DNA of 64,000 nucleotides from Bispira polyomma (lineage: Eukaryota). Below the pieces are notes generated by a model. That model ran no database searches and was not told where the DNA came from. It saw only the letters and a list, made by a program, of their open reading frames with translations. The stretch covers positions 44,950,001 through 45,014,000 of the forward strand of contig OZ287756.1 of assembly GCA_965649765.1 (NCBI GenBank). The letters run 5' to 3'. The translations under genes and the position numbers were made by a program. Position 1 is the stretch's first letter. Each line of letters starts with the position of its first letter. Positions 3,125 through 64,000 of this stretch are shown here, piece by piece.

Positions 3125-3737
3125 AAGACAACTTAACTGGGGAGCCTGGACCAGTTGGCTTTGCTGGTCAACTAGGTGCAACAGGAGATACTGTAAATGT
3201 TGGACAACCCGGTGAAAGAGGCAAGCTTGGAGACACAGGGTATACCGGGGAAAAGGCCCAGATGGGGTTGATGGTATTAAAGGCCTCGCAGGTCTGATTG
3301 ATGATACCGGATTAGCTGGAATCAAAGGGTTTACTGGACAACGAGGTCCCAAAGGAATTAATGGTGATACTAGAGCAACAGGTGCACATGGGATACAAGG
3401 TTCCAAGGGACCGTTAGGATCCAAGGGTAAACCAGGTCTTAAAGGTCAACAGGGGTTAGAAGGTATACGTGGAAATAAAGGCATTAAAGGTACAGAGGGA
3501 GAAAAATGTGTAATTGGTCCAATTGGAGAAAATGGTGCCAGAGGATATTATGGTCCATCAGGTGATAAAGGTCCAGAAGGTGCTCCTGGACCACCAGGCT
3601 CTAGGGGTAACCATGGGAACAATGGGGCTTCAGCCAAGGGCGATTCTGGTGATACTGGATACACAGGTCCAAGTGGTGAATGTGGAAGTACAGGACACAC
3701 GGGCAAGCCTGGTCCGGCTGGTAGATATATATACTGA
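3125..3737 (+). pseudogene. Degenerate copy of exon 2 of the plus-strand short collagen
   Basis: Homologous to 17336-17994. It has a -1 frameshift near 3250 (ggg g aaaa ggc), several Gly substitutions and a 45-nt deletion (GYR-GVK-GGS-GST-GDK) between taaagg microhomologies. No exon 1 is seen upstream. Confidence 0.9.
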
Positions 3738-9716: not shown

Positions 9717-12700
9717 TTATTCAAGATTGACACATATTTTGTCTAATTCGCCTGCTCGACAACCTTTTGGTCCTGTAGGCCCTGTACTACCAGTTGCACC
9801 TTGTGACCCTTTGGAACCTGTTGCGCCTGTGTCTCCTCTAGCTCCTCTACTTCCCATGTATCCACTGTACCCTCTGGGTCCTCTAGGCCCTGAAGTACCA
9901 GGTGAACCTTTCTGTCCTTTTGGACCCTGAAAACCAGTGTCCCCTTGCATACCATCTGGACCTGATACTCCAGGTAATACGCCTTGGTTGCCTGTGTCAC
10001 CAATATATCCAGTAGAACCAAGTTGTCCCTTAAAGCCTTTATCACCTGGTTGCCCATTGTCACCTTTTGCTCCCTTTTCTCCTGATTGGCCCAGTGAGCC
10101 CTTTGTCCCAGCTGGACCTGTTAAGCCTCTTTGTCCAGTACTGCCTTGCTGTCCCACAATTCCTGTTATACCTTTAATTCCATTACTTCCTTGTGAACCA
10201 GATATTCCTGCATTTCCACTTCTTCCAGTTGGTCCAGTCTGTCCTGACAACCCAATGACTCCTTCATCACCCTTTTGACCAACTAATCCAGTACTTCCAG
10301 TGTATCCTATATCACCAATAAGTCCTTTATGTCCTTTTATTCCAGTATATCCTGGCAGACCAACAGATCCTCTTGGTCCAGGTTTTCCAGTCTGGATTCC
10401 ATCTAATAAATAAACATAAATTACATGTAATGTTCATGTTAAAAATTGGCCAAAATGGTTATCATTTTTAATTTTAAGCTAATTGTTATGAAATGTGGAT
10501 GTCATTTACTAATACAGATAAAATATAGGTTATATGTATTTCATATTTTATAAAAGGTAGTCTACACAAATAACATAGCTGACACCAAAAAGGTAAATGC
10601 TAACATTAAGTATATCAAAATAGATAACATAAAATTCATATAGCCAAATGAAATCAAATATATTTGTCATTTCAAATAATCATAACTTGTATATTTTATT
10701 CAATCTGAATAGTTTTATCATCAAATGTTTTAATTTACATGTATCCCGATTATTGGATCACTAATATGCCCACATAAAGTAAGTTAGCCATTGATCAATG
10801 AAATTACACAGCACGACCCTAAAGGGGTATGCTTATTCAGTTCCCTTAGCAAATATATACCTTTACCTTAACCCCTAGGGGTCCATTTGAATACTGTTCA
10901 ATGGCCTCTCTTTCGATTGACCAATGGGAGACATTTGAACCCCAAATTTTACCTCTCACATGCTTACCCTACCATATTGAATTTCGTTTTACAAGAGACA
11001 ACATTAGAAATATTTTTGTGGGACACTTAATGATAAAGTGTCTGAACTTTACAGTCTTTTAGTATTTTAGTTTTTTACCTTGGAATGGTTTTAATCATAT
11101 ACATATTGTTTTAACTGTGAATTATATACCGTGTACACATGGGACGAGCTAAGAAAACACCGGCGAAAGCAGCACCCAAGTCGAGACGACAGAAGAAGTC
11201 TACTGTGAAGGGTACAAAGGGTAATGTAGCTTATAGTACTGACATGAATGAAAGTATAATAGGAGACCTACGGGTTCCGTCCGAGCAAGCTCTCTGCTCT
11301 CATCAAAATTCACCTCAAGCGGGAGGTTCCACCTTCCCGATGGCCGCCTCGGTAGATTTACAACACCCGGTGCCACAGATGCTGCAACCCGCTACTTCGC
11401 TTAATACTACCAGTGATAACGTAGCAATATTGACAATGTTGAATCGAATGGAGCAATCCAACGCTGACATAGCCCGTCGGTTGGACCAGATAGAAGCTAG
11501 GGGGCTTACACCGGTACAGACAACTGCCGTGTCCACTACAGCGTTTCAACCGGCTTACGTACCTTCACCAGTGGTGCAGCCTACCAACGGTTATGGAAAT
11601 ATAACCGCCTCGACTGCTTCAGTCGTGCAGCCTGCGTCCGTATCCAGCACAGCGCTTCCACCAGTTTATGTTCAGCCTACCAGCGGTTATGGACATTTGG
11701 TCGGGCCCACTACTACAGCTTCAACCTCAGCTGAATACACACGTGACGGAATTGTTCCTAGGACGGACGTCTTGAGGTCGATGCCCGAGGTGCAAGCCTT
11801 AGTGAATCAGCGGCTGGCTGAGCATGAAGTCAGGGCACAAGCTATCTTTAACCAAGGTAAGGTTAATTCGCGCCAGAAGTCGGGACGTTATAACAATACC
11901 GACACAGCGGCCACAGATCCGCGCATGAAATGGGCTAACGAAGGTTGGAGTGGGGGGTCTTCACGTAAGCGTCCAACGTTTGATGAGCTTTCCCTTCCAC
12001 ATTGGGCTGCAGGGCAGTTGTGTAATGCTTTACTGATAAGTGACAACCAGTTGTTACGGGATATGATCCAGCAAGTGGTACTCTCGCTGAAGGATGCTTC
12101 GTCGCTCCCCTGGGAGGTCGTCCGCACGGCTTGGGCGACAAGCATGCAGGAGGTCGAGGAAGGTCGCCTGACCTGGGACAACACTACTCAGTGGTCGCTC
12201 AACCGAATTAGCGCGTCCCAGACAGTGATGGCTAATTCATCTCACAACACAGGTTCGGCTGGTGCATATACGGGGAGATCCACGATTTGCAAGTTGTTTA
12301 ATTCAGGGAAATGTTCACAGAAGAATGATCATGGAAATTACAAGCATGCCTGTTGGCATTGTGCTACCATTTTGAATAAAGATTCGCCTCATCCTGAGTT
12401 TAAGTGCTACAAGGCCAATGCCACAAAACAGTTAGAAAATAAGCATAGTTAGGACATTGACCGACTACCAGTGAAAGGAACATTAGCAGTGAGTTGTAGG
12501 GACAGAACTGTAGAAACTAACGTATCTAAGTCAATAGATTTAAAAGATAATGGCATTGTAAACTATGACGATGAAGACATTTTGCTTAGCCATTTGCAAA
12601 TTATTCATAATGATAAACAATGCATGCATAATATGATTGATATTAATGATACCGGCATTACTACACAGTTTGAGGGTAACCAAATGGAACATAATGAGCA

Positions 12701-15700
12701 AACAAAGATTATACACGAAAATCGTACACATGTACACACACCTTATGGTGATTCTGGGGATACAACCAATAGAAATAAAAAATTGGCAAGTATAACAGGT
12801 CAAGACAAGTTCCATTTGGGTACCACAGATACTGTAATAGATGTTTCTAATGTTGGTGTTCAATGTCCACAGGACAGGGAAAGTAGTGGTCATAATGTGT
12901 TACATTCCACACAAGCATATGTGGAGATTTCGAAAACAAATTGGGAATTTTGCACCGAGATTGGGGGACCATTGTTCCCCGTGGTTTTCGTGAACTCTGT
13001 TCACTCAGAAATTAATGGGTTTTATACCTGGAGGGATGGGGGTCACACAAAAGGGAGTGCATTGGAAAAATGTCTTGGCACTCCAATAGGTCCTATTTAT
13101 ATTTTAGAAAAATTCTATACACAGGTAACCATCATGGAAAGTCATGAGGACATTATGGATGTTCATAATGTATACATTCCTACGGATACTGATCACATGG
13201 TGGCTAGAAATACCTCCTATCATTATAAGAAAGACATTGAATGTCAGCATCGGCATAATGTTAATTATACTACATATATAACTAACTTAATCCATAAGTT
13301 GATTGAAGCTGATGATATAGTCACACAGCCATTTCATAATTGTACAAACTTGGACATGCATGAAGGGAAGACAAAACTTCATTGCAAGGACAAGTCGCTG
13401 GATGGAGGACAAGCAAATATCACAGTGTATGAATTTAAGGATCATGGTTCCGAGATAGATAGTCAGAATAAGGCAATTAAGGATTTTAACTTTCCAGATA
13501 AGGATAAGGGTTTCATTCCTTTAAGTCATACAGAATTTGAATTCTGTGGCCCAGATAGGGCTCCAATTAAAATTGCTACAGTGCAACAAATGGTGGATAT
13601 AGCTCACACAATCAAGGATTCTGGTTGTGCCAATTATAAGGGTGCCAGAATACCAATAGCTTCTGAATTACAAATCCAGGCTTGGGAGAAGGTTTTGATT
13701 GATTATCCGGATAAGTTGTTACTCCAATATTTAACTTTTGGGTTTCCACTTTCTCTTGAGCATTCTGAAAATTTAACAGTTAAGGAAGTTTCTAATCATA
13801 GTTCTGCCCTGCAACATGCAGAGGCAGTTAGTCAATATATCAGTAAGGAACAAGTTCATGGTGCCATGTTAGGTCCAGTTAAGAAAGTCGATAGCGAGTT
13901 GTTTCACTGTTCCCCCTTACTCACTCGTCCTAAAGACGGAAATAAACATAGAGTGATCCTTAACCTCTCTTATCCGGAAGGCAGTTCAGTTAACAGTAAT
14001 GTAGATAAGCAACGCTTCGATGGAGTCGAATTCGCTTTAAAGTTCCCTACCATAGATGACATTGTAGCAAAAATCAGGGATACCGATAATCCTAAGATAT
14101 TCAAATTGGATATTTCGAGGGCATTTAGGAATTTAAGAATAGATCCGGTCGATGCCATGAAGCTAGGTATCTGTTTTAATGAATATAAGTACATTGATCC
14201 GGCTATGGCGTTCGGATGGATACACAGATCCGGAGCTTTTCAGAGATGCTCTGACGTCATAGCTTACACCATGCGCAAACGTAAACATACTATATTTTGC
14301 TACATTGATGACTACATCGGAATATCACCTGCTCATGAGGCAGAAGGCGCTTTTAACGATCTTTATGAGTTAGTAACGTCCTTGGGTCTTCCCCTGAATC
14401 CGGACAAGATCTCACGTCCTAGTACAAGTCTAACTTGCCTGGGGATAGATATTGACATAGAGGAGGGCGTTATTAGTATTTCCAAGGAAAAATTGGAACA
14501 AACTTACGAATGTTGCCAACAAGCTTTTAATAAGAAGTGGATGTCTAGAAGAAATTTCCAATCTGTTTTAGGCAGGCTTCTATATGTTCATAAGTGTGTT
14601 AAGCCGGCTAGGATTTTTATAAATCGATTATTAATGGCTTTCAGGAAGAATGCTCATGCCAAGCGATTTCATATTACTAATGATATCAAAGCAGATTTGC
14701 TCTGGTTTATACGGTTTCTTCCCTTGTATAATGGCATAACTTATATCGATCCAATAATTCCTCCTCACCAGAATGAAGTATTCATTGATGCGTGTTTAAC
14801 TGGTTTAGGGGGGCTTTATACTGACCAAGTTTTTGCTTCTCCATTTTATAACATCTATAATCAGCGGCTGTCTATAGTGCACATTGAAATGCTTAATATA
14901 TTAATTGCCTTGCGTGTGTGGGGGATACAGTGGAAACATAAGAGAATAATTATTAACTGTGACAACATGGCTGTGGTACTGGTAGTTAGGTCTGATAAGA
15001 CTAAGGACCAATTTTTAGCTTTATGTTTAAGGAATATGTGGCTGCTTACTGCAGCTTATGACATTACTTTGGTCATTCAGCATGTTAGGGGGAAGGACAA
15101 TACTATAGCAGACATTTTATCAAGGTTATACTCAGATCACCCACCAACTGGTCACCAGGTCGACATGTTACAAACAGGATATAAATGGCATAGTATTCCT
15201 ATTCACTACTTTAACTTGAATTTAAATGTTTAATTGTAGGAACCAACACCGTGACTCAACACCTTATGAATTCTGCATGGAAACGGGTCTCTTCAGCATT
15301 ACGTCCAAAGACTACTGCTACATACAACCAACAGTTTAGAACTTTCGTTGCTTTTCTTATATTTGTTGGCATACAGGACATTTCAACTAATTCTGTTATA
15401 GCATTTTTGGAGTACCTGGCGCAAAACGGCTCTTCCCCTAATGTTTTAACCAACCATTTATCAGCTCTAAAGTTCACAGCTAACAAACTATATTGGAACC
15501 AAAATATTTTCGAAAATCCTTCAGTTGCCATGTTTATTAGGAGTTTGTCACATTCTTCTACTTTTAGACCTCAACCTAGGGGTATTTTTGATATTACACA
15601 TTTACAACAGATATCTAAAGCATGTGACATTCTGGGGGATCCCCCATTATATAGGGCAATATTTCTGGTGGCATACTTTGGATTCCTTAGAATCTCAAAC

Positions 15701-16604
15701 ATTGCTCCACATTCCAGAAATAAATTTGACCCAACGCGTCATTTCCTTAGAAAGGATGTTGTGTTTGGCCATCCTGGAGCTCATTTAATACTTAAATGGG
15801 CTAAGAACTTACAAAATAGATCAGAACATCATGTAATTCAATTACCCCAACTGCAGAATATACATTTGTGCCCAGTCAGGGCACTTCATAAATTGTTAGA
15901 TTCAAGGCCTTTGCCTGTAGAGTGTCCACTTTTTGTTACTGCAAGTTGTCCTCATGTTCCCATTGTGGAGACTCATGTCAGACATTCTTTAACCTTGGTC
16001 TTACAACATATAGGTATACCACACAGAGGTCATAGTTTCCACACATTTAGAAGGTCAGGAGCTACCTATGCTTTTAACAATAACGTTTCTCTCCAAAACA
16101 TTATGTCTCACGGGTTATGGAGATCTTCAGCAGTCTGGGTTTATCTTCAGAAAACTCCTCAGGCTGCTGCAACTATTCCCCTTGCCTTTGCTTCTTCTAT
16201 CCCTTCTTCCCTTTAGTTTGGCTTGGGATATTTTAAAATTCTCTCTTTAAATTTTAAAAAACTTGAAAATTTTTAACCTACCCTGTATATACCTTACTAA
16301 TGTGTATATAAAATAAACCTCAAACTACTATCTATTAATTTAATTTACTTCACCTGTAATTACTACAAGGTCACATAGTCTGCTTCTTAAACTCTATATC
16401 TTTACCTCACTTTGCGAACAGGAGAACTGGAGTATAAATACCTAAAATGACATATTTTATTTGTGTCCAAGCATTCTTCATCATCTGTATATCCGATTTT
16501 AGCATCTTTACCACATCTCTGCAACCGAGAATCTGGGGTTTTGTTGTGTATTGTCCAAATGTAGATGAAATACAACCAAAACACAAAACATAGAAAAATA
16601 ACAT
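9717..16604 (-). CDS. Short secreted collagen, chain B, copy 1 (exons 16604-16442 and 10402-9717; 282 aa); intron carries a 5.6-kb YR retroelement
   Basis: Signal peptide MLFFYVLCFGCISSTFG, phase-1 GT-AG intron, 70 Gly-X-Y triplets with one interruption, C-terminal GCRAGELDKICVNLE. Confidence 0.88.
11139..12452 (+). CDS. Gag-like ORF1 of the Ngaro-like element
   Basis: 437 aa with a basic N-terminus, a heptad segment (LNRMEQSNADIARRLDQIE) and a C-terminal Cys/His cluster CKLFNSGKC...HACWHC...HPEFKC. Confidence 0.9.
   Translation: MGRAKKTPAKAAPKSRRQKKSTVKGTKGNVAYSTDMNESIIGDLRVPSEQALCSHQNSPQAGGSTFPMAASVDLQHPVPQMLQPATSLNTTSDNVAILTMLNRMEQSNADIARRLDQIEARGLTPVQTTAVSTTAFQPAYVPSPVVQPTNGYGNITASTASVVQPASVSSTALPPVYVQPTSGYGHLVGPTTTASTSAEYTRDGIVPRTDVLRSMPEVQALVNQRLAEHEVRAQAIFNQGKVNSRQKSGRYNNTDTAATDPRMKWANEGWSGGSSRKRPTFDELSLPHWAAGQLCNALLISDNQLLRDMIQQVVLSLKDASSLPWEVVRTAWATSMQEVEEGRLTWDNTTQWSLNRISASQTVMANSSHNTGSAGAYTGRSTICKLFNSGKCSQKNDHGNYKHACWHCATILNKDSPHPEFKCYKANATKQLENKHS
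12453..15233 (+). CDS. Pol ORF2 (uncharacterised N-terminal region, reverse transcriptase, RNase H), in frame with gag
   Basis: Motifs SPLLTRPK...RVILNLSYP, KLDISRAFR, YIDD, DACLTG, CDNMAVV and NTIADILSR. The frame is open from the codon immediately after the gag TAG. Confidence 0.95.
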   Translation, partial: DIDRLPVKGTLAVSCRDRTVETNVSKSIDLKDNGIVNYDDEDILLSHLQIIHNDKQCMHNMIDINDTGITTQFEGNQMEHNEQTKIIHENRTHVHTPYGDSGDTTNRNKKLASITGQDKFHLGTTDTVIDVSNVGVQCPQDRESSGHNVLHSTQAYVEISKTNWEFCTEIGGPLFPVVFVNSVHSEINGFYTWRDGGHTKGSALEKCLGTPIGPIYILEKFYTQVTIMESHEDIMDVHNVYIPTDTDHMVARNTSYHYKKDIECQHRHNVNYTTYITNLIHKLIEADDIVTQPFHNCTNLDMHEGKTKLHCKDKSLDGGQANITVYEFKDHGSEIDSQNKAIKDFNFPDKDKGFIPLSHTEFEFCGPDRAPIKIATVQQMVDIAHTIKDSGCANYKGARIPIASELQIQAWEKVLIDYPDKLLLQYLTFGFPLSLEHSENLTVKEVSNHSSALQHAEAVSQYISKEQVHGAMLGPVKKVDSELFHCSPLLTRPKDGNKHRVILNLSYPEGSSVNSNVDKQRFDGVEFALKFPTIDDIVAKIRDTDNPKIFKLDISRAFRNLRIDPVDAMKLGICFNEYKYIDPAMAFGWIHRSGAFQRCSDVIAYTMRKRKHTIFCYIDDYIGISPAHEAEGAFNDLYELVTSLGLPLNPDKISRPSTSLTCLGIDIDIEEGVISISKEKLEQTYECCQQAFNKKWMSRRNFQSVLGRLLYVHKCVKPARIFINRLLMAFRKNAHAKRFHITNDIKADLLWFIRFLPLYNGITYIDPIIPPHQNEVFIDACLTGLGGLYTDQVFASPFYNIYNQRLSIVHIEMLNILIALRVWGIQWKHKRIIINCDNMAVVLVVRSDKTKDQFLALCLRNMWLLTAAYDITLVIQHVRGKDNTIADILSRLYSDHPPTGHQVDMLQTGYKWHSIPIHYFNLNLNV
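15240..16216 (+). CDS. Tyrosine recombinase ORF3 (probably reached by splicing, exon start 15240)
   Basis: Catalytic signature R (GFLRISN), K (WAKN), HxxR (HTFRR), H/W (HGLW) and Y (VWVYL). Confidence 0.93.
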
Positions 16605-16817: not shown

Positions 16818-17994
16818 ATGTTAAATATGCCTGTTTTTCATATTTTAACAATTTTAACATTATCCTTTGTATTGGTTTCTAGCCAAAAAACTTTTCAGTG
16901 TGGATTATTTATGTGTGACAGCAAAATACAGTACTTGGTTAATAGCATAGATACTTTAAAAAGAGAATGGGCACAGGCAAAGAAAATATTATCAGGAATA
17001 GTTTTAAATGTACATATTATGAGCTACAATTATAAGTTTAAATATGATGTCAATAAGAAATATTGACAAACCTGTATTGATAGATTTCTGGCTAATTACT
17101 TTTATGTTATAAAATGTTATTTATTGGTTATTATATTATACCTCTCTGTCTGCAAGTGCATATAATAAGTAAGATAATGAAGTTTATTCATATAACCCTA
17201 TTTCTAAAATTACTAAAGCCACTTTTTTATAGTTTTTTCAAATAAAACAATATTTGCTTCTGATATACTTTACAGTTAGTAAAATGTTCAAAACACTGTA
17301 TAATATTAAATACATTAGACATATTCTATTTTCAGCAGGCAACTTGACGGGGGAGCCTGGACCAGTTGGCTTTGCTGGTCAACTGGGTGCAACAGGCTAT
17401 ACTGGAAATGTTGGACAACCCGGTGAAAGAGGCAAGCTTGGAGACACAGGGTATACTGGGGCCACAGGCCCAGATGGGGTTGTTGGAATTAAAGGCCTAG
17501 CGGGTCCTATTGGTGATACCGGATTACATGGGATCAAAGGGTTTCCTGGACAACAAGGTCCTAAAGGGATTAATGGTGATACTGGAGCAACTGGTGCACA
17601 GGGAGTACAAGGTTCCAAGGGACTGTTAGGATCCAAAGGTGAACCAGGTCTTAAAGGATACAGAGGGGTGAAAGGTGGGTCAGGATCAACAGGAGATAAA
17701 GGTCAACAGGGTTCAGAAGGTAGACGTGGCAATAAAGGCATTAAAGGTCCAGATGGAGGAAGAGGTGTGATGGGTCCAATTGGACAGAATGGTGCCAGAG
17801 GATATTATGGTCCATCAGGTGATAAAGGTCCAGAAGGTGCTCCTGGACCACCAGGCTCTAGGGGTAACCGCGGGAACAATGGGGCTTCAGCCAAGGGCGA
17901 TACTGGTGATACTGGATACACAGGTGGAAGTGGTGAACGTGGAAGTACAGGACACACAGGCTGGCCTGGTCCAGCTGGTAGATATATAAAGTGA
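16818..17994 (+). CDS. Short secreted collagen, chain A, copy 1 (exons 16818-16995 and 17336-17994); splice donor mutated, possible pseudogene
   Basis: Signal peptide plus 70 Gly-X-Y triplets. The donor reads GA at 16996-16997 where copy 2 has GT. Confidence 0.8.
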
Positions 17995-23861: not shown

Positions 23862-25126
23862 TTATTCAGGATTGACACATATTTTGTCTAATTCGCCTGC
23901 TCGACAACCTTTTGGTCCTGTAGGCCCTGTACTACCAGTTGCACCTTGTGACCCTTTGGAACCTGTTGCGCCTGTGTCTCCTCTAGCTCCTCTACTTCCC
24001 ATGTATCCACTGTACCCTCTGGGTCCTCTAGGCCCTGAAGTACCAGGTGAACCTTTCTGTCCTTTTGGACCCTGAAAACCAGTGTCCCCTTGCATACCAT
24101 CTGGACCTGATACTCCAGGTAATACGCCTTGTTTGCCTGTGTCACCAATATATCCAGTGGAACCAAGTTGTCCCTTAAAGCCTTTATTGCCTGGTAGCCC
24201 ATTGTCACCTTTTGCTCCCTTTTCTCCTGATTGGCCCAGTGAGCCCTTTGTTCCAGCTGGACCTGTTAAGCCTCTTTGTCCAGTACTGCCTTGCTGTCCC
24301 ACAATTCCTGTTATACCTTTAATTCCATTACTTCCTTGTGAACCAGATATTCCTGCATTTCCACTTCTTCCAGTTGGTCCAGTCTGTCCTGACAACCCAA
24401 TGTCTCCTTTATCACCCTTTTGACCAACTGATCCAGTACTTCCAGTGTATCCTATATCACCAATAAGTCCTTTATGTCCTTTTATTCCAGTATATCCTGG
24501 CAGACCAACAGATCCTCTTGGTCCAGGTTTTCCAGTCTGGATTCCATCTAATAAATAAACATAAATTACATGTAATGTTCATGTTAAAAATTGGCCAAAA
24601 TGGTTATCATTTTTAATTTTAAGCTAATTGTTATGAAATGTGGATGTCATTTACTAATACAGATAAAATATAGGTTATATGTATTTCATATTTTATAAAA
24701 GGTAGTCTACACAAATAACATAGCTGACACCAAAAAGGTAAATGCTAACATTAAGTATATATCAAAATAGATAACATAAAATTCATATAGCCAAATGAAA
24801 TCAAATATATTTGTCATTTCAAATAATCATAACTTGTATATTTTATTCAATCTGAATAGTTTTATCATCAAATGTTTTAATTTACATGTATCCCGATTAT
24901 TGGATCACTAATATGCCCACATAAAGTAAGTTAGCCATTGATCAATGAAATGAGTATAAATACCTAAAATGACATATTTTATTTGTGTCCAAGCATTCTT
25001 CATCATCTGTATATCCGATTTTAGCATCTTTACCACATCTCTGCAACCGAGAATCTGGGGTTTTGTGGTGTATTGTCCAAATGTAGATGAAATACAACCA
25101 AAACACAAAACATAGAAAAATAACAT
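23862..25126 (-). CDS. Short secreted collagen, chain B, copy 2 (exons 25126-24964 and 24547-23862; 282 aa)
   Basis: ATG, signal peptide, 416-nt phase-1 GT-AG intron and open Gly-X-Y domain. Confidence 0.92.
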
Positions 25127-25339
25127 TTTTAGCCTATCTTTAAATATAATATTTAACTTTGTCCCGTCCTTACTTACACAGATCTGAATTCTGAATTAAT
25201 GTTTTCAGTCGTCATAAGTGTGTACTATATGATATATTGGCAACTTTCCAAGGTCGTAATATATGTACCAAATATACAAAGAGGAAGACAATTTCTATAT
25301 TGTGGGCCTCAGTTTAAAGAATATAGGGAGACATCAAAC
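25127..25339. promoter_or_regulatory. Putative bidirectional promoter, copy 2
   Basis: 213 bp between divergent ATGs, matching 16605-16817. Confidence 0.6.
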
Positions 25340-26492
25340 ATGTTAAATATGCCTGTTTTTCATATTTTAACAATTTTAACATTATCCTTTGTATTGGTTT
25401 CTAGCCAAAAAACTTTTCAGTGTGGATTATTTATGTGTGACAGCAAAATACAGTACTTGGTTAATAGCATAGATACTTTAAAAAGAGAATGGGCACAGGC
25501 AAAGAAAATGTTATCAGGTATAGTTTTAAATGTACATATTATGAGCTACAATTATAAGTTTAAATATGATGTCAATAAGAAATATTGACAAACCTGTATT
25601 GATAGATTTCTGGCTAATTACTTTTATGTTATAAAATGTTATTTATTGGTTATTATATTATACCTCTCTGTCTGCAAGTGCATATAATAAGTAAGATAAT
25701 GAAGTTTATTCATATAACCCTATTTCTAAAATTTTTCAAATAAAGCAATATTTGCTTCTGATATACTTTACAGTTAGTAAAATGTTCAAAACACTGTATA
25801 ATATTAAATACATTAGACATATTCTATTTTCAGCAGGCAACTTGACGGGGGAGCCTGGACCAGTTGGCTTTGCTGGTCAACTGGGTGCAACAGGCTATAC
25901 TGGAAATGTTGGACAACCCGGTGAAAGAGGCAAGCTTGGAGACACAGGGTATACTGGGGCCACAGGCCCAGATGGGGTTGTTGGAATTAAAGGCCGAGCG
26001 GGTCCTATTGGTGATACCGGATTACATGGGATCAAAGGGTTTCCTGGACAACAAGGTCCTAAAGGGATTAATGGTGATACTGGAGCAACTGGTGCACAGG
26101 GAGCACAAGGTTCCAAGGGACTGTTAGGATCCAAAGGTGAACCAGGTCTTAAAGGATACAGAGGGGTGAAAGGTGGGTCAGGATCAACAGGAGATAAAGG
26201 TCAACAGGGTTCAGAAGGTAGACGTGGCAATAAAGGCATTAAAGGTCCAGATGGAGGAAGAGGTGTGATGGGTCCAATTGGACAGAATGGTGCCAGAGGA
26301 TATTATGGTCCATCAGGTGATAAAGGTCCAGAAGGTGCTCCTGGACCACCAGGCTCTAGGGGTAACCGCGGGAACAATGGGGCTTCAGCCAAGGGCGATA
26401 CTGGTGATACTGGATACACAGGCCCAAGTGGTGAACGTGGAAGTACAGGACACACAGGCTGGCCTGGTCCAGCTGGTAGATATATAAAGTGA
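25340..26492 (+). CDS. Short secreted collagen, chain A, copy 2 (exons 25340-25517 and 25834-26492; about 278 aa)
   Basis: Signal peptide MLNMPVFHILTILTLSFVLVSS, donor cag|gtatag, acceptor tttcag|cag and 70 Gly-X-Y triplets. A further 3' exon cannot be excluded. Confidence 0.9.
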
Positions 26493-29699: not shown

Positions 29700-30480
29700 G
29701 TAGTAAGGACAATCAGTAGTGACACAACAGGTGATGGAACATAATTTGAATAATGGATTCAGTGTTACACATCAGATGATTGAAAAAGCCAGTCACAAAA
29801 CAAAGACTCGTCATTGATTTTTGGAAGAATAAAGGTGTCAAGCCATCCTGGCATGATATTTTAAGATATTCTGCCACCCTTAAAAGTTACTGGTCACAAT
29901 GGGACAAGGAGATTTGCTTACAAGCCTTTACTGTTGCTAAAGCACTGTATGACGCCATTTTAAACAGTTCCTATTCCATTCAAAAGGTGTCAGCACTAGT
30001 GTTTTTATAACTGCCAGCTTCTTTATTTTATCCCAAATATCAATCCACACAGGGATATAGAGTAAAAGTCATAATACCATCATTAAAGGACCTTGCACAA
30101 GGTCTATGGGACAGGCTACATATCAGGAAAATACTATTGCACAGTGAATGAATTAATCCATAAATCCATCACATTTGTGGCCAACTTGTAGTACCTCGAA
30201 ATAACATCAATAAGGCAAGATTTGTTTCAGTTGTATGGACAAAAAAAAAATGGTCAGGTAATTTTGGTATCAGGAGGACTATTGGTCGTGTGAGAAGAAG
30301 ATTCTACTGGGTAGGATATAAAGCTGATATTCAGAAATGTTGTCAGTCATGTCAAGAATGCCAGAGACGTAAGTCTTCAAACAAAAAGGCCCTATATTCT
30401 ATGATGTAGTATCTGGTAGGAGCTTCCATGTAAAGGAAAGCTTTAGATATCCTATCTCCACTATCTGAGAGCCACTTGGA
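29700..30480 (+). mobile_element. Decayed Gypsy pol fragment running into the integrase zinc-binding region
   Basis: FGIRRTIGRVRRRFYWVGYKADIQKCCQSCQECQRRK near 30263-30373. Confidence 0.85.
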
Positions 30481-36900: not shown

Positions 36901-39514
36901 TTACCCCAGAGCGAGCCAGTGCCCAGAACTAACACGAATGGCTCAAACACTGATGCTGGTAGGTTAGACGGCAGATTCCATATTCTCAGTATACTCAGTT
37001 GAAACTCATATTCAACTCAAATTTGGCTCTGAGGTTATAATTTTGCACAGCTAAAACAGTATGGTATATCTGACTTTACTTACGATCTTTGAACATAATT
37101 ACACTTGTAATATATAAATTGAGAGGTCATATATGTTTTCCCATATTTTGACTTTTCAGTGTGGCTTTACACCTGATGAATTTTTTCATTAATTTAATGC
37201 CATCCACTTACATTATCTTGCCATAAAGATATCGAAAGTATTAATAATTGATTGTTACCATAATGTTATCTGATTTTCAGTCTATATATTTATATCTGAT
37301 TTCATATAGCACTGCTGTTTTTGTTCACACTAGTGAATACTTCGTTTTATCAAGTATTGCTACTTGATTTTGCCAGTATTAATATTTGGGTTTTAGAATA
37401 TTGAGTACTGGTATTTGGTTCTATACATTATTGACATCAGACTTTATGCAGTAGTGGTGATTAGTTTTATGCAGTATTTGTACCTTCTTTTAATTTAAGG
37501 TATTGCTATTTGACTTAAAAGTATTGCTGTCTGAATTTAAACAGTATTGGTAAATAGCTGTATCCAGTAATAAGTATTTGTATATTTATGCAGTATTAAA
37601 CATTGTAGTATTACAAATTTTGTTTTTGTACAACATTGATTGTTGTCATCTGATTGTGCACAGCCGAGGTATGTCTTTTTAAAAGTATTAGAAACTAATA
37701 TTCCTGAAGTAAAAAAAGTCTAGCAATAAATAATTATAAACACCACTAGGGTTCTTTGGCCTTCAATCATCTAAAAGCATTAGTTATGCAAAATAAATTT
37801 ATGTATTTAGGTATAAGTCACATAGGTGTAACTAAGTTTTTAGATGTGAATCTTTAGGATATCAACCTTTGCTATCGAACATATCACAGTTTACATCACT
37901 ACGATCATTTTTAGAACATTTTAGCACTCCTTATACATGTAATTCTTTTAAGGACTAATTATCATATGTCATATGTAAAAAAATTTGAGAAGTATTTATT
38001 TATTCCTTATACATGTAATGTCTTTGAGAAGTAATTCACACTTATTGTACATGTAATTATTTTGAGAACGACTTATCATTACTTGTACATATAATTATTC
38101 TGAGAAGTATTCATATTTCTTATATGTGTAATTCTTTAAAAAAAATAAATTATTCCTAAAACATGTAATTCTCTTAAATGTATTTATAACTTCTTATACA
38201 TAAAATTTTTAAAAAGAATATTGATCATTCCATTTACAATAATTTGCCCAGGTGCCCCGCGTCCACTGGATTGTAGTTGAAGACTGGCCTGTAAAGACTC
38301 CATTTGTGACAGAGTTGCTACACAGGACACCTGTTCAGTCTACACACCTGTGTATTACTACATCGTCTGTAGAGAAGAGAGCCAATGTGAGTGCACAGGA
38401 GAATACCTGGTAGCTAAGTATGCCCTTTTATAATGCCAACATCTGTCATTCCTGGTAATACCACATCCGTCACATCAAAAGAATCAGAAACCACCTGTCA
38501 CTGGACACTGCTATAACTGTGGCTAATGCCCTTGTGAGTAGCCGTCTCGACTAATGCAAGTTTCTCTTGTTTGGAGTAAACGAGTCACAGAGACTCAAAA
38601 GCTCAAGTCCATTCAGAACTACCTATTCGAGGTGATTTTTCGGCCCACATCTCTCCTTATGACCTTGCTATGCTGACTAACTTTACAATTGTATCACTGA
38701 TAATGCTGTTGCCCCTTTAAGATGCCTAGTATCAATAAAGCTGAATTTCTCATGATGTAGCTTTGATATGTCTTTGCTGAGACTGATTAAAACACTGTCA
38801 CAGATAGTTGTGTAACTGTCATGGATAGAACATTTTCTAACCCATTTTATCAAAATATCTATGATCAGGACAATGTTATATTATTTAGTATTTGTTGCTA
38901 TACTGGTCACTGAACATTACAATATTTTTTGTGTAAACTAGGTCAGGGGTTTTTCCCAAAGAAATCTTGCTCTGTCTTGGATCAAGGACCATGCTACCGA
39001 TGGCATCATCTATTTTGCTGACGATGACAACACTTACAGCCTTAAACTATTCAGTGAAATCAGAAAAACCACTCGGATTGGAGTTCTTCCTTCTGGTTAC
39101 ATGAAAGTTACTGGAGTGTCTAGCCCAATCGTGAAAGGTGGCAAAGTCGTAGGGTTCCTGGATTGTTATATACATGGTAGGAAATTCCCTATGGATATGG
39201 CTAGTATAGCTATAAATATTCAATACTGGCTTCAGAGAAATGCTACACTGTTCAATAACCCCAAAATAGCCTATTTAGAAACAAGGCTCCTAGAAGCCAT
39301 GGGTGTGATGTGGAGTGACCTCGAACCTTTAGCAGAAAACTGTACAAAGATCCTGGTGTGGCACACACAGACAAAGGAGATTTTGGCAGCAAAGATGACA
39401 ATAGACAGTTCACTGGAGGATAGTAATGTACCCAAGTTACTGGAAAGTACCAGGTTTACCAAGCATTCAGGCTATGTAAAATACAAAAGACTCTATGAAC
39501 TGCTTAAGTCCTAG
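33964..39514 (+). CDS. B3GAT: GT43-family beta-1,3-glucuronosyltransferase (B3GAT/GlcAT-like); exons 33964-33992 (tentative), 36742-36958, 38252-38386 and 38942-39514
   Basis: Type II transmembrane segment, then VITPTY, WIVVED, RGFSQRN, YFADDDNTY, FPMDMA and LVWHTQT. GT-AG introns with compatible phases (2,0,0). The first coding exon was chosen only for its phase match. Confidence 0.9.
36050..36632 (+). mobile_element. 3' fragment of a non-LTR retrotransposon in a B3GAT intron
   Basis: IKDLLYLRD...YEINVMLKYLCE resembles the 7960-8550 fragment; aataaa(tta)n tail. Confidence 0.55.
37930..38240. repeat. Degenerate minisatellite of about 38 bp
   Basis: Recurring tacatgtaattctttgagaagtattta-like units. 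Confidence 0.7.
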
Positions 39515-42226: not shown

Positions 42227-45200
42227 TGAAGTGACCAGTCACTTTTACTTTGAAGCAGACTCGTGCAAGGCAAAGCCAGGGATAACTAGATTTAAAGTTT
42301 GGAGAGTTTATTTACATGATTTAAATCTTCAACTGTACATAAAAATTTAGGATAAAATAAATTTTTATAAACCCCATATAAATGAGTATAAACTAAAAAT
42401 TATAAAATGCTTGATAAAACTATAACGTGTATAATCAATCAAATTATGTCATAACTTGTGTAGGTATAAACTGATGAATATTCATCATTAAATATAAATA
42501 AAATATATATATCCTCCAATTTATTGGGTGGAGGGTGGGAAATTTTTCCACTTCTTGACACTTTGGTCACTAATTATTTAATGCCACATATGAGAAAAAG
42601 GAGGGAAAACCTTCCTCTATACTGTTTCTGATTAGCTAGCAGGTTAGTAAACAATTTAAGAGAGGGACCTTCCTTTAGCTAAGCTGTGATTGGCTTTAAG
42701 TCAATACCCACAGGTGTGTGGACACAGATACAGTAAACTACTGACTTTTAGCGACTGACTGGTCATGCTGTCTATGACCCCGCAGTGACTTACACAGTCG
42801 CTTTTACGTTGAAGCAGACTCGTGTAAGGCAAAGCCAGGGATAACTAGATTTAAAGTTTGGAGAGTTTATTTACATGATTTAAATCTTCAACTGCACATA
42901 AAAATTTAGGATAAAATAAATTTTTATAAACCTCAATAGCCGTAAATGTTTGAGGTATTATCGAAGCAGCATTAGTAGTTGAGTCAAGGTAGTGCCAAAT
43001 GGCATCGGATTTCCAGCACCCGTGTTTCTGAATATTTTGGAGCTTTATATTTGCATTAAAGGCCAATGAGGCACCTGATCTTCGCAGGCAATGAAAAGTA
43101 TGGCCTTGATGAAGAATACCCAGTTTTACTAATAGAGATCTTAATGCCTCTCTTAATTTTGATTCTGAGATGCATTTACCCCTGTAGCCTTTTGAAACAG
43201 GGCTCTAGCAGAAGTAACTGGGCGAAGCCAGACATTTTCCAAACACGAGAGCTGGATAATATTTACATTTTCTCTTGATTGGTTGGTCTTAGACCACTTA
43301 AGGACCAAGTGTATGCCTGGTGGAGCAAAGAGTACATCAGCCCTCGTGAGGTGTCGAGAGGGGTCAAAAGTGTTTGAAGTTGAGGGGGCTAGATTTGAAA
43401 TCCTTAAGAACCCAAAGAATGCAAATAAAATCGCAGTTCTGTACAACTCTGGGAAAACCAAAGTTTCACATAGTTTTGATATTTCTTGCAATTGTTTCAT
43501 GTCCAAAATGCCTTTAGGTTTAGGTGTAAACCTTGAGTTAATTGCTAAAGATTTCTGATACATAGTAATTCGATAGTCATATAACTGATGACTCTGAATG
43601 TGAAGCACCTTACATGAGTGACGAATAGCTGCAATGTAATTGTTAATAACTTTGTGTAAAATATTGATGTAAATATTCCATGAATGCAAGCAGAGAGGTG
43701 AACAAAAAGTGGTTGTCTATGTTATGGTAAACCATGAAGGCCATGTACAGTCTGAATTGTCTGTCGTATTGTCTCCGTGTTCTTGGACGCTGGCTGTCTT
43801 TAATTTTCGTCATAGCGTCAGAAATGAGGGTTCTGACTGCTAGAGGGTTACCTGTAATTATATATCATTATTCATTAAAAATAAGTCAACCTTAACTTCA
43901 TTCATAACAAAGTTACTTAAAATTTCTCTTTTCATTTCATAGCTATGAATACCTAGTTTATGCCATCTAGATAGGACGTCTGCTACAATATTCTTTTTTC
44001 CCTCTATGTGTCTTATGTTAAGGTTAATATTGTAATTTGCACAAACGAGCCATAAGTTTCTTAGACACCTGCTTAAATAGAGGTCCCTAGTTTTGGAGGA
44101 CTGCACAACAGAGACAACTGCGGCATTGTCTGACTGTATACTAACTGTTTTATCCTTGAATTTGTGTTTCCATAGTCTTATTGCTACCAGTAAACTCAGC
44201 AACTCAGAGTGAACTAGCGACAAAGATTGCTTAATACATAAGGGCAAGATGGCAGTGAATACATCACTGTCAGATACTCCACCGATGCCTTCTAAACATG
44301 CATCTACCTGTAATGATGTAGTTTGTACTATGTCATCACTTTGAAACTTTGTAGTGCCATTATAGTCAAAAAGGAATCTAAGAAACCAGTCTCTCTTAAA
44401 GTCCTGGTTTAAAGTTATAGTCTTGTCACTTGTCAAGTTTCTCAGTATATTTAGCATTCTGTTCATAAAAATCCTTACTGGTTTAATGCATCTATGAATA
44501 TAGAGCAATTTCCCCAGCAAGAATTGATATTTATTTTTTCTTACTTTATTCAGAGGAATAAATTCCCTACACGTTTCGTGTATTGATTGTAATTTATCTT
44601 TGTCTATGCTCAAAGATTTTTCACACACGTCAATAGTAATTCCCATACATGTTACACGTGTACTCGGCGGTACCAATTTGTCTTTGTTTATGGGGAGACC
44701 AAGGTCACTCAGTATTTTCTTCAGAAATTCGAAAGCTAAGGTCGCCTTACTCTCAGATTCTACGATGACAAAATGACGTCAGAGTTAAATCCACGTAATA
44801 ATTATGTTTCCAACTGTAGCCGAGTTTAAGGCAGTCAAAAGGGTCGACTCGCAAATTTCTAAAGGCGTGAGCCACGTCGACCTTTGCTATTTTTGCTGTT
44901 GGACCAATATGTTTAATTTGGTCGACTATCTGATCAATAGTTGGTAGTTTTAAAGTAAACCCGATATGGTCATATTCACTTTTAATGGTACAGTCATTTA
45001 CTGACGCCCCATTTGGGTGAGACAGACTTAAAATGAATCTTCTCTGTCCGTCGTCCTTTGGACGTGTCAATAAAGGAGAGCAATGTACTTCTTTGTTGTC
45101 GAGTGAACTAAAAGGGCCAATAATAGTACCTTTATTTACTTCTTTGGTAAAGTACCGGTCAACGTATTCAGGAAATTGTAAAGCTGAGTAGTGATTCTTC

Positions 45201-48130
45201 ACTTTTTGTGTGTTTAATCGATTCCTTTCATAAAAGGATATAGGAAAGCCATATTCCAAGTACTGCAGCAGTTGCTGATCTGGATAATCGCTTAAGTAGT
45301 GTTTCTACTGGTCTATATTAAGTCCAGAAATAATAGGGATTCTTGCATTCTGGTAGTTTGGCTGACCCGTCTCTTTAATTGTGTCAGCTATTCTTATTGG
45401 AGTAGCATAATCCTTAATATCGACTGGTTCTATACTTGGACATACAAGCTAAAACTTTGTGATACTGTGAGGAATAAACCCGTACTGTCTTATTGGATTA
45501 CATTCCCTATCATGTTCAGTGTCAACATTATTGAGTTTGTCTTCATCTAAGAAATGTGTGAATAAGTTGTCATTCTCACACATGAGTTCCTTGTGAGTAT
45601 TACTGTCGTTTCCTAACTGTCCCTGCCTAACGTTCAAGTCCATCTGTCTGGTAAGTGACTTGTTCATTATGTTATGAGGTGATGGTTTCTTGTGTGTTGT
45701 ACAAGTGTGATGTGTATTCTTCGTATTAGAATGAGCACGAGCTGTATTACTGTTGTGTAATTGTTCCTCATACTGTGTTCTAACCATGTCACCTGTTTCA
45801 CTAATCTGCATGTAACTAGAAGGTATAACTATATTACACAGTTTGTCCATGATGTCAATATAATAGTTTGCTTGCCCTATTTTTGCCCTTACATGTGAAG
45901 TTTTGTTGTGCTTAAATCTGTCAGTGTGATCATATGTCTTGTCTGTATGTATGTTTTTGCTTGGTTGTGGTAAATGATGTTTGAATTTTGAATTGGGATA
46001 ATTAACGTCCACTCTAGTACCTGTTTAGGTTATATTGGGACGGGTAGTTGGAAACGCTGGAGGAAACACTGCATACAGTAAGGAACTACCACCTTTCCCA
46101 CATAGGCATCGACGGGATTCGAACTCACGCCGCCCAGAGGTGAGAGACCAGTGATTGTGAAGCGCAATGCTTGCTAACCACTAGGCCACCGTGGCCCCGG
46201 TAAATGGTGTGCTACTATAACTGTCTGTGTGTAGTATGATAGAGGCCATACATCCTTTATGTTATGATCAGTTTTCATGAATGTTGCCTGAAATACATTA
46301 TTGTAACACAACTTATATACACCATTTAGGTTAGTATCACTTCTACACATAATATAAAACAGTTGGTTAGCATTATAGTTCACATTATAACTTCTATATA
46401 CATCTACAGTAACCCATTTGTATTCAGCAGTGGTCTCTGTACTACCATTAACTTGCACTACCTCATTACTAATTTTAGTGCTAACACTATATGACATATC
46501 ACTTGACCTATCTATATTCATAGTTTCAAAAGTACAAATTTGTTTGTCTTTTCCTAAATTAATAAATTTATCACATAAACTATTCTCATTGTCATTGTCT
46601 GTATTTTCCAACACATTGCCATAGATACTACTGTTGGTGCTAACTGGTTCATAAACAGTTGCCTCTGCACACAGCCTCCTGTCCTATTGGGTAGTAATGC
46701 TGGTAGATTGAGGTTTCCCGTTGAGTTTAAAACATTTTGATTCTGGATGGACATTCTCTCGCTTGTTAACTCTAAAAAAATTTGCACAAATATGTTTAAA
46801 ACTCGTAGTGTTGTTCTCATGGTCACCCGGGTGTAAACACTGGCCCCTCTGATAGTGCCTACAAGGCACCTTAGATTTTGTCGCGTTGATCGTGGTTGAG
46901 GCTGACATGGAAGCCTGAGAACACGAGATCCTGTTCATGCTCCATTTGTTTTCATCCGCCCAAGTCAGTCGCCCCTCTTCCAGATCATGCATGTTGCTCG
47001 CGTAGGTGGCCTTGGCCACCTGCCATGATATATTACTCACGTCCCGTAGAGTGTCCCCTAACTGCCTTAACATCGCTCTAGCTGTTGCTGCATTTCTAAC
47101 CTCCAAAATATTTTGAATTTGGCCTGAAGCAAATTGTGAAACAGTTAGATCATCATAAGCCGACAGTTTTTTAGAAAGGCCGATCAAACAGCTCTCATTC
47201 GGCCACCTGTACTGGGGGTCAGTAGTACATTTTTCTGAAGTATTAAAACGTCCAGATCTTTTTTTAGAATAAAGCTTACCGTGAAGTATGTCGTCGGTAG
47301 CCATGGACTCATATTGTGCCAACCTGTGGTTCACTTCGTTTTGTATGAGGGCAGAATGTCTTAATACGATTCCATTCCTGTGTCCACTGTTGCTCAGGGG
47401 TTGGGTAAGAAGGCCTGTCTGGGTTAATCGGCGTTTTGTATGTGCCCCAGTATGGATTCCCCACTGTCGAAGGCGCGTTATGGGGTTAACGGGTACTGAT
47501 GGACCCTACTGTCAGTCGTCCTGCTTCCAGTTTGTCAATCTTGCGTTGTTTGCCCCTGTGTGGGTTGTACTAAGGTGGTGGTGGGGGATGTGCGATATCA
47601 AGGAGTAGTTACAGGTGTGATTTTTGTAATGTGATCTTGACTATAACTCACGTTTCTTTGTAGGCAGTCATCCTGGCTAGCTTCCCCCGACGTCCTCATA
47701 ACATCCTCCTGAATCGTGGAATCACCACCCTGAGCCTTTAGTTCTGTGACATCCTTCTGTAGTGTAGACACGGATTGCAGTATAGTGTCCATCATTTCTT
47801 GCTGTTTTCTGCATATTTCTTCATAGGGATTGACACCGTGTTCACCTTGATTAGTCATCTCGCTGCTACCAGCCATTTCGCTGTCGCTAATGGGTTTCTC
47901 TGTAATAACTGTATCCAAGACACGGTTTTTCAAACACCTTACGCCAACCGGTCTCTCATGTTTTATTTTACATTTTGAACACTCGGCCAACTCATGTTGA
48001 CTCTGCCTGGTTTTTCCCTTTCCCATTATGGTATCACTACGTTTCCTACTGGTTACGACGTATCTTCCCATTAGTTACTACTTTACACATAAAAACACAC
48101 TAAAAACACTAAAACAAGTAAAAGTTGTAA
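42227..48130 (-). mobile_element. Near full-length decayed Ngaro-like element with split direct repeats
   Basis: gag (48071-46684, frameshifted), pol (46683-43858; frameshifts, SINE insertion, YxDD region deleted) and YR (43851 to about 42935, frameshifted). A 138-bp direct repeat lies at 42236-42373 and 42795-42932. The 5' terminal repeat was not found. Confidence 0.92.
46002..46198 (-). mobile_element. tRNA-derived SINE inserted in the pol N-terminal region
   Basis: Starts GGGGCCACGG, with A box TGGCCTAGTGG, B box GTTCGAATCC and tail gagtggacgttaa. Confidence 0.85.
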
Positions 48131-54830: not shown

Positions 54831-55064
54831 TCTCACAATTTTTACTTATAAAAACCACACCACATAGGAACTATTCTTCACATTATATCTATGTTAGATA
54901 GTACAGACATTCAGAAAATATAATTTGGTGTCACTAAGTTTGCCTTTAATTTAAAGATAAGGTTCCCAAAACAGTAGGCTTCCATGTCTACCCAAATACC
55001 AAATTTGAAAGGTTAGTAAAGTATGGAGGGAGGTAATTTGGCTGTGAATCAAATAATTGTTTGA

Positions 55065-55408
55065 AAAGCGTACTCATATACTGTATATATTCCATCATAA
55101 TCCATAAATTTGGTTATTCAGTTAGTGTTTCAAGTACATACTAATAATCCATATATTTGGTTTTAATTCAGTTTGTGGGTAAATAATATTCTGTATTTAT
55201 TTCATCATAATCTATATATTTTGCCATAATTTCGTTAGTTTTATAGCAACGTACCCATATGCTGTATTTATTCCTTCCTAATCCATATATTTTACAATTA
55301 ATTCAGTTAGTTGTTCAACAATGTACTCATATGCTGTATTTATTCCATCATAATCTATATATTTAGTCATTAATTCAGTAAGTGGCTCAACAACGTACTT
55401 ATATGGTA
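55065..55408. repeat. 72-bp satellite, first block
   Basis: Units resembling atatgctgtatttattccatcataatccatatatttggttattaattcagttagtggttcaacaacgtactc. Confidence 0.9.
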
Positions 55409-58400: not shown

Positions 58401-58780
58401 TATGAGTAGGTTACTTGCTTTATCCTCAACACTAATGCTTGACATATTTGTCCTAAATTTCCTTAAGTGAGACTCTATATTTCAAAAATTACTCTCCTCC
58501 TTGAAAGTTAGATTCAAGCATTAGTAAGGATAAGGTAAGGGTATTTATCGCAATAAAAAGTACAAATTTTATTGTAATTGATCATTTTACCGGCCGCACT
58601 TTTATTTTTGCAATATAACTAAATTAATTGTGAAGGGTATCTCGAGGACGAGAGTTCGGCTTGAAAAAAGACTGATGTGATTTTTATGGTCGAATATTTA
58701 GGTGAACCAAATGAAAGCATTAGTGAGTATAAGGTAAGTATTTATGTTCCAAAAAGATAAATTACAATAAAATTTTGTAC
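55409..58780 (+). mobile_element. Decayed DIRS1-type YR retrotransposon
   Basis: RT (NLTNVYFHIPIH, FGIATAP), RNase H (IDNASVVTYLNKQGG), methyltransferase-like (VDLFAT...DALNISW...YAF) and YR (HFRAMAISLAF...WTSHNTFTHFYLKD). Inverted and complementary terminal segments are present. Confidence 0.9.
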
Positions 58781-58784
58781 AATT

Positions 58785-59160
58785 TTGGCAATTATTCAGT
58801 TAGTGGTTCAACAACGTACTTACATGCTGTATTTATTCCATCAAAATCCATATATGTGGTGATTAATTCAGTTAGTGGGTTAAAAAATGTACTTGTACAC
58901 AGTATTCATTCCATCATAATCCATACATTTGGTTGTTAATTCAGTTAGTGGTTAAGCAACATACTCGTATGGTGTATTTATTCCATCATAATCCATATAT
59001 TTGATAATTAATTCAGTTTGCGGATCAATAACCTACTCATATGCTGTATTTATTAAATCATAATCCATATATTTTGCCATTACCTCAGTTAGTGGCGCAA
59101 CAATGCACTCCTATTCTGCATTTATTCCATGATAATCTATATATTATGCCGTTAATTTGG
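58785..59160. repeat. 72-bp satellite, second block
   Basis: The same unit resumes after the DIRS element. Confidence 0.9.
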
Positions 59161-59229
59161 GTTGTGGAGCGGACGTTGGTGTAGTGTGTGTTGGAGATTC
59201 TATGATTTGAAACAGGTTATTCATTAAAT

Positions 59230-60215: not shown

Positions 60216-60359
60216 GTGAGTGAAAATATAAAATGTTTTGTACTAACGAGTTGGGTAATACTACTCCATCTTCTCAACTAATGACTAGTCCACTATTTTT
60301 GTACTCTTTAGCAGTCTTCCATCTTGATATGTGGTGACCACTGTTACCACTGTTTTCCT

Positions 60360-63915: not shown

Positions 63916-64000
63916 AAATCAGGAAAATCTCTGGCAGAAAAATTTGGGGTTTTCTTCAGTGAAAAAATTAAAAATATCAAAAACATGTTCTCTGGCTCAA

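Follow-up and report, generated by a model that had tools for sequence, protein, structure and literature searches.

Three clustered short genes give the ABC trimer of C1q, and nematode cuticle collagens combine an N-terminal helical segment, a short helix and a Cys-bearing tail. Cuticle collagen of the Riftia type is very long and carries O-glycosylated Thr, and Mann et al. reportedly found in 1996 that Thr is the dominant residue at Y in the cuticle collagen of this vent worm. Collagen IV has an interrupted helix of 1300-1400 residues and a 7S domain (PMC12562938). The sawfly silk collagens SfC A-C have 60-62 triplets, Pro at 38-53% of X positions and Gly-rich flanks, and the accessible part of their description shows no heterotrimer (PMC3790195). 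In collagen IX, the choice of the three chains and their stagger depend on NC2, a helical bundle of ~35 residues with a disulfide between chains (PMC5126661). Control by the helix itself has been shown for artificial sequences, with real collagens described as still to be addressed (PMC5126661, Boudko and Bachinger), and later work points to Lys-Asp/Glu bridges in register (PMC11923368). In designed ABC peptides an axial R-Y pair counts for +6.3°C and a lateral one for -4.0°C (PMC12086834), a crystal structure exists of a designed trimer of the Arg-Tyr/Phe type (10.1101/2024.05.21.595195), and the RGY/RGF motif counts for collagens I-IV in Table S1 of PMC12086834 could bear on the novelty of what is reported here.

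Here we analyzed a head-to-head pair of short collagen genes in the annelid Bispira polyomma, for which an original prediction made from the sequence had proposed a heterotrimer of the two encoded chains.

Results

Exploring 64,000 nucleotides of contig OZ287756.1 (the window, positions 44,950,001 to 45,014,000), we found two divergent collagen genes, A2 on the + strand and B2 on the - strand, with 213 bp from ATG to ATG and two coding exons each. Exon 1 of A2 (25340..25517, +; ATG at 25340) encodes a putative 22-aa signal peptide and a 37-aa N-terminal segment (Q1, C11, W29) and is followed by a GT donor after 25517 and a 316-nt intron; exon 2 (25834..26492, +) encodes the linker AGNLT, 60 triplets, AK, 10 triplets and IK-stop, giving a product of 278 aa. 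Exon 1 of B2 (24964..25126, -; ATG at 25126) encodes a putative 17-aa signal peptide and a 37-aa segment, and a GT donor and a 416-nt intron lead to exon 2 (23862..24547, -), which encodes the linker DGIQT, 70 triplets interrupted past triplet 46 by a single additional residue, and a C-terminal tail of 12 residues, Cys included, giving a product of 282 aa. The 37-residue segments share Gln1, Cys11 and Trp29, both introns are phase-1, GT-AG, and lie 8 residues past the Trp, and each 5-residue linker is followed by 70 Gly-X-Y triplets within a single exon. This two-gene anatomy, from the 213-bp distance to the linkers and the triplet count, is as originally predicted, except that the helices are imperfect, with one flaw each in A and B2: in A, a two-residue insert AK (equivalent to a lost Gly) follows triplet 60 in all four A copies, and the extra residue after triplet 46 is shared by B2 and B1 and missing from B0. 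The splice acceptor of A is a tandem CAGCAG, so a 4-residue linker is also possible. The putative signal peptides were recognized by eye, from a hydrophobic core and small residues at -3/-1; the predicted mature N-terminal Gln is invariant in 11/11 aligned first exons.

PolyA-type hexamers lie downstream of the A2 and B2 stops. The expectation that no C-terminal globular domain follows the helix was borne out, as the stop comes close after it and no known collagen domain was found by Pfam in 50 stop-to-stop frames (45+ aa) downstream on the gene strands. With respect to known classes, there is no NC1 domain as in collagen IV (stop 2-21 residues past the helix; none in the 50 downstream frames), no C-propeptide (COLFI) in Pfam searches or the downstream frames and no ~1000-residue fibrillar helix (210-213 residues here), no gC1q domain of the C1q or collagen VIII and X type (Pfam, 50 downstream frames), and no match to Col_cuticle_N in exon 1 of A, B or the third chain C described below at E up to 0.5. 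The only Pfam matches in these frames were an integrase fragment and the neighbouring glycosyltransferase. The former is a zinc-binding fragment at 30164-30406 (+), at the end of a duplicated unit; the latter belongs to exons of glycosyltransferase family 43 (glucuronosyltransferase) at 38243-39514 (+), 12 kb downstream of A2, whose best named matches are only ~50% identical, indicating a divergent paralog. This gene was considered as a partner of the collagen pair and set aside, as no evidence of linkage was found. A long array of diverged ~72-bp tandem repeats occupies 55036-64000.

The spacer between the two ATGs (25127..25339, 213 bp) is a candidate bidirectional promoter. Aligned with the spacer of an older pair, B0/A0, it is identical at 174/213 bases; between old and new pair, identity is 82% in the spacer, 72% in the A intron and 84-91% in the exons. 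Just 5' of the B ATG lies a 44-nt GT...AG stretch (25130-25173, -) with a strong donor-like start; it is kept in B0 and may represent a promoter motif or a very small intron in the 5' UTR. AT-rich 8-mers are common to the spacer and the region upstream of C.

The pair does not stand alone but belongs to a tandem cluster that also includes a third type of chain, C: A2/B2 is the last unit of ~50 kb (44,926,000-44,977,000 of contig OZ287756.1) ordered orphan C-type exon, C1, B0/A0, C2, C3, A pseudogene, B1/A1, B2/A2. Self-comparison shows that a C-B-A cassette was duplicated and afterwards an 8.5-kb B-A unit. Chain C carries Q1/C11/W29, a phase-1 intron and a linker of the same length as A and B, followed by 71 triplets with non-Gly residues at triplets 1 and 14 in C1 and at 36 in C3, and a tail with 4 Cys. 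Upstream of the window lie C3 (44946936-44948284, -) and C1 (44927092-44928440, -), both with an open frame and a GT donor, and the older pair B0/A0 (44933627-44937297), in which B0 has an open frame, a GT donor and a Gly to Asp change at triplet 31. Within the window, A1 (16818..17994, +) is a near-identical A copy with an open frame whose donor is GA for GT and which is likely unspliced for that reason, and an A-type pseudogene (3125..3737, +) retains only exon 2, frameshifted and with a deletion. B1 (9717..16604, -; exon 1 16604-16442, exon 2 10402-9717) is a near-identical B copy that harbors, ~12 nt inside its intron, an apparently intact tyrosine-recombinase retrotransposon of 5625 bp (10805..16429, +) with gag-like, RT/RNase H-like and YR frames. 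No target-site duplication was seen at this element; the empty site is visible in B2, indicating that insertion is likely later than the last duplication. A second, broken tyrosine-recombinase retroelement with similar frames lies at 43153-48074 (-).

An open frame together with a GT donor is found in A2, B0, B1, B2, C1 and C3, so that at least one open copy of each chain type is retained, A2 being the only one among four A copies; 3/4 A copies, C2 and the orphan C exon are broken. Every open copy has a helix flaw, at positions that differ between chains. The head-to-head B-A layout is kept in 3/3 copies with both first exons, with C outside the pair. In contig sets of runs X1-X3 (DNA-like, no spliced joints) the two donor variants of A and the Gly-to-Arg variant of C3 are all present, which makes assembly slips unlikely. 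dN/dS is 0.45 for B2/B0 (Fisher p 2e-4) and 0.56 for C1/C3 (p 0.02), the C helix alone giving 0.62, not significantly below 1 (p 0.13); A1 and A2 are too alike for such a judgement.

Given several pseudogene copies, the cluster could be decaying. On that account it would be the remnant of a once functional ABC collagen, its code real and its genes protein-less, and the broken A, C2 and orphan C copies, the retroelement in B1, the flaws in all open helices and dN/dS values of 0.4-0.6 speak for it. We regard it as very improbable, since one full open set keeps polyA-type signals and canonical splice sites, B and C overall have dN/dS values significantly below 1, and residues paired in the register analysis below change conservatively only.

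The Gly-X-Y repeats match PF01391 with 114 and 119 bits. Helix length is 210-213 residues in A, B and C. Compared without a shift, the chain types agree at 11-16% of X/Y positions, roughly what shifted comparisons give. Pro occupies 12-27 of 140-142 X/Y positions and 8-12 of 70 X positions (11-17%), Thr is the commonest Y residue in 7/7 gene models (14-21 of 70), and aromatic residues occupy no more than 7-9 of 70 X sites.

Triple-helix geometry places Y of the leading or middle chain opposite the X residue two positions further along the next chain; for Y of the trailing chain, the facing X lies in the leading chain, five positions further along (PMC11923368). A backbone model reproduced this geometry. 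In a first pass all 27 chain orders were ranked by salt bridges, and cation-pi pairs were counted alongside. Salt bridges alone do not pick C-A-B (leading, middle, trailing): CCB or BCB came first and C-A-B second to sixth, with corrected p 0.36-0.70 over 70 triplets. K/R-aromatic pairs in this first pass numbered 16-18 in C-A-B and at most 14 in other orders. The cation-pi metric was chosen post hoc, after the salt-bridge ranking, and was then tested with corrections. The combined score for A2/B2/C3 was 31 for C-A-B, 25 for the next order and 11, 17 and 19 for homotrimers, and the C-A-B score was reached as best of 27 by 0-3/600 shuffles in 4/4 copy combinations.

Scanning offsets between chains gave peaks at +1 triplet for C>A, +1 for A>B (tied with +5) and +2 for B>C, which is the i+2, i+2, i+5 closure required by a triple helix. 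In the C-A-B order, 15/20 Arg residues at Y face an axial Tyr or Phe at X; at C>A the facing residues run F, Y, F, Y, D, Y, at A>B they run Y, A, Y, V, F, Y, Y, S and at B>C Y, S, Y, Y, Y, Y. Among 2187 order-and-slip states C-A-B is the best, the top three states being one physical arrangement with zero slip from the equal-N-terminal-length alignment, and the next distinct state has 9 pairs. Homotrimers have 2, 4 and 3 pairs and the best A/B-only register 8, compared with 15 for C-A-B, and none of 400 shuffles, each at its best state, exceeded 11 or reached 15. Other copies give the same winner, with 14 pairs for A2/B0/C1. Weighted sums using the measured axial and lateral pair effects of Table 2 of PMC12086834, which rank states and are not melting points, gave 79-81 for C-A-B (reached by 0/1000 shuffles), 43-47 for the next state, 0.6 for AAA, 21 for BBB, -1 to -2 for CCC and 41-42 for the best A/B-only state.

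The signal is densest near the C-terminus. Seven Arg-Tyr pairs fall at triplets 56-64, where A2 contributes R57, R58 and Y64 (triplets 57-64, 26352..26420, +), flanking the AK break, and B2 contributes R56, R57, Y58, Y59, R60 and R61 (triplets 56-61, 23982..24035, -); the paired Tyr residues of C are Y58, Y59, Y62 and Y63. In five windows of 30 triplets A/B/C has 5, 2, 3, 7 and 9 pairs. In 5000 triples of unrelated collagens no count per 30 triplets exceeded 3 pairs, a weak control given that only 5/165 pieces are comparably rich in Arg and aromatic residues; of a first negative control 4/120 sequences were usable, and the analysis had no natural heterotrimer of known register as positive control. 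Common ancestry does not explain the pattern, as X/Y identity between chain types is low and the pattern is missing in same-chain and reverse pairs. Between diverged copies 5/29 Arg/aromatic sites changed (R-K, Y-F, F-Y, R-K, and F-L at an unpaired site) and 53/251 other X/Y sites; the Arg/aromatic rate is not clearly lower, and only the kind of change differs.

Given 15 pairs in C-A-B and at most 9 in the next state, 2-4 in homotrimers, 8 in A/B-only registers and 11 in shuffles, an ABC molecule is the most likely product, not A2B. We conclude from the sequence pattern that the three chains very probably form one ABC triple helix with C leading, A in the middle (the place predicted for A2) and B trailing (predicted for B2), its register fixed by the helix sequence. 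The predicted heterotrimer of the pair is upheld insofar as a mixed trimer is favoured over homotrimers, but three chain types are involved, and A and B without C reach only 8 pairs, against 15 for C-A-B.

The original proposal, A and B alone as A2B or AB2 with a shared promoter and N-terminal coiled-coil registration, is very unlikely in our judgement. The conserved head-to-head layout agrees with it, as do two B-A units without an adjacent C, five Arg-aromatic pairs at the A>B interface and BAB as the top A/B-only state (41), but chain C is needed for 10/15 pairs, the A/B-only count does not favour A2B or AB2, and the A and B segments are both basic while that of C is acidic. The other possibility, that A, B and C are independent equal-length homotrimers co-assembling side by side, as may hold for sawfly silk, where each chain folds alone (PMC3790195), gains from five diverged C-type exons found in another organism where A and B were not detected and from 3 favourable g-e pairs per homotrimeric segment; 2-4 axial pairs, weighted sums near zero for AAA and CCC, and a +1, +1, +2 asymmetry that goes beyond shared homotrimer ancestry, with no pattern in same-chain or reverse pairs, leave it with little probability.

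The N-terminal segments bear on the C-A-B order to a lesser degree. As predicted, a Cys (Cys11) and an amphipathic heptad segment are present, with a clean pattern of a = 8, 15, 22, 29, 36 and d = 11, 18, 25, 32, all hydrophobic, Ala or Cys in all chains. Segment charges are +3 in A, +4 in B and -3 in C. Pairs between g and e number 4-5 in the cycle C-B-A, 1-2 in its mirror and 3 in homotrimers, and in ideal geometry the C-B-A cycle of the segment turns in the same sense as the C-A-B order of the helix. The cycle is ahead of mixed trimers such as ACC by a single g-e pair, so the segment supports the order weakly. Judging from these patterns, an N-terminal coiled coil probably assists chain registration; the coiled-coil registration put forward originally is plausible in that the heptads are clean and g-e pairs weakly indicate the same order, while register is signalled most strongly by the triple helix.

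Searches in Pfam and PDB gave nothing significant for the segment (PDB best E 0.69), and a genome search with three first exons gave no convincing match beyond the cluster (best E 1.5). The exon-1 profile search proposed with the original prediction revealed C-type relatives in another organism, though no known domain family: a profile of 7 first exons run against 1.84 billion representatives gave 7 matches, of which five (P0239, P0241, P0243, P0244, P0245) are first exons of C type that share 30-46% identity with C3, retain Gln, Cys and Trp, and lose similarity at the intron position; P0240 and P0242 were discarded as repeat-driven. The five probably form one cluster in another organism and an independent expansion of chain C. 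No A- or B-type first exon was found in another organism by the profile or by a word-based A/B exon-1 search confined to near lengths, which gave 2 candidates, none scored. A helix search of the protein collection gave 288 matches among 8000 scored candidates, and the 120 of them listed were all generic Gly-X-Y proteins. The helix, profile and exon searches gave no full-length relative among annotated proteins.

Other collagen genes and lineage markers were noted in the rest of the genome. At G000:C13:10,018,000-10,312,000 numerous collagen exons on the - strand give way to numerous others on the + strand, judged by their arrangement likely the genome's own head-to-head collagen IV pair, and G000:C2:81,059,000-81,088,000 carries a collagen gene whose Gly-X-Y exons are very long, with open frames of as much as 743 aa, a candidate giant cuticle collagen. 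Three erythrocruorin linker matches lie above the Pfam cut-off, compared with 0/14 control genomes, which marks the host as an annelid. The mitochondrial genome (G000:C75) has genes on both strands, with cox1, cox2, cox3 and nad3 opposite to the rest, a majority strand with G over C, and rrnL and rrnS adjoining cox1 on the opposite strand, a block reported beside cox1 for Sabella, Sabellastarte, Branchiomma and Bispira (PMC13602327) and pointing to a sabelline fan worm as the likely host; atp8 was not seen in a scan of this contig.

Discussion

Together, the data make a strong computational case for helix-encoded register in what appears to be a new three-chain short collagen family. In the molecule that we propose, the signal peptides would be removed and the three 37-residue segments would form a parallel three-helix bundle, with Cys11 at a core position and possibly disulfide-linked, gathering one chain each of A, B and C. 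About 15 axial Arg-aromatic pairs and 13-15 Lys/Arg-Asp/Glu pairs would select and stabilise the C-A-B stagger, and Gly-Tyr-Arg triplets would penalise homotrimers; the pairs would stand in for the missing C-terminal trimerisation domain and for part of the usual Pro/Hyp stability. The C-terminal end may be nucleated, or clamped across the A break, by the seven Arg-Tyr pairs of triplets 56-64. The rod would be a single ABC helix ~60 nm long, likely secreted, and the Cys-bearing B and C tails would join such rods by cross-links into a mesh or fibre outside the cell. The Thr-rich, Pro-poor composition, like that of vent-worm cuticle collagen, leads us to guess, with little conviction, at an outer-surface matrix (cuticle or tube lining) as the site. 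We lean towards reading the pairs as an Arg-Tyr cation-pi zipper that writes both chain choice and stagger into the helix, with no C-terminal trimerisation domain and little Hyp, and, with the same moderate preference, towards seeing this zipper as the evolved counterpart of the designed ABC peptides.

Which chain leads in heterotrimeric collagens is a standing question that A/B/C, if the proposal is true, could answer. The prediction is sharp, naming C-A-B and 15 Arg-aromatic pairs, and three peptides of 21 triplets would be enough to probe it. As a recombinant scaffold, an ABC collagen that is small, Pro-poor, encoded in two exons and self-registering would also be convenient, and the register scoring is usable on other invertebrate collagen clusters to find partners from sequence. 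A literature search of partial coverage, which does not establish absence from print, turned up no account of the A/B/C family and none of an Arg-Tyr register code in nature, making A/B/C a candidate natural case of a code that we found described only for designed peptides.

Judged by defining domains, A/B/C is not a collagen IV, fibrillar, C1q-type, FACIT or nematode cuticle collagen. The likeness to COL4A1/COL4A2 in the original prediction is one of layout only: a divergent gene pair with a very short spacer is shared, whereas A/B/C has no NC1 and no 7S, a helix about 1/6 as long, two exons, and a third partner gene in tandem. The clustered short A, B and C genes resemble those of C1q without the gC1q head; an N-terminal helical segment, a short helix and a Cys tail recall nematode cuticle collagens, without Col_cuticle_N. 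FACIT collagens have several collagen domains split by NC domains, and A/B/C has a single helix. With the Riftia cuticle collagen, A/B/C shares an annelid host and Thr as the commonest Y residue but is far shorter. The sawfly SfC A-C, of independent origin, are likewise three small chains of similar length with Arg at Y, but Pro at X is 11-17% in A/B/C, and the Gly-rich flanks and Pro-rich X positions of sawfly silk were not found. Like collagen IX, A/B/C has three distinct chains, and its 37-residue segment may act in chain selection as NC2 does; unlike NC2, the segment is N-terminal to a single helix, has a regular heptad and no sequence match to NC2 in the PDB search, and the register pattern lies in the helix itself. 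With the designed ABC collagen-mimetic peptides, A/B/C shares the same Arg-Tyr/Phe and Lys-Asp axial pair types in the same geometry; those peptides are short, synthetic and set in a Pro-Hyp-Gly background, while A/B/C is natural, Pro-poor and 70 triplets long. Of the systems compared, A/B/C would work most like NC2 of collagen IX combined with the designed cation-pi heterotrimers.
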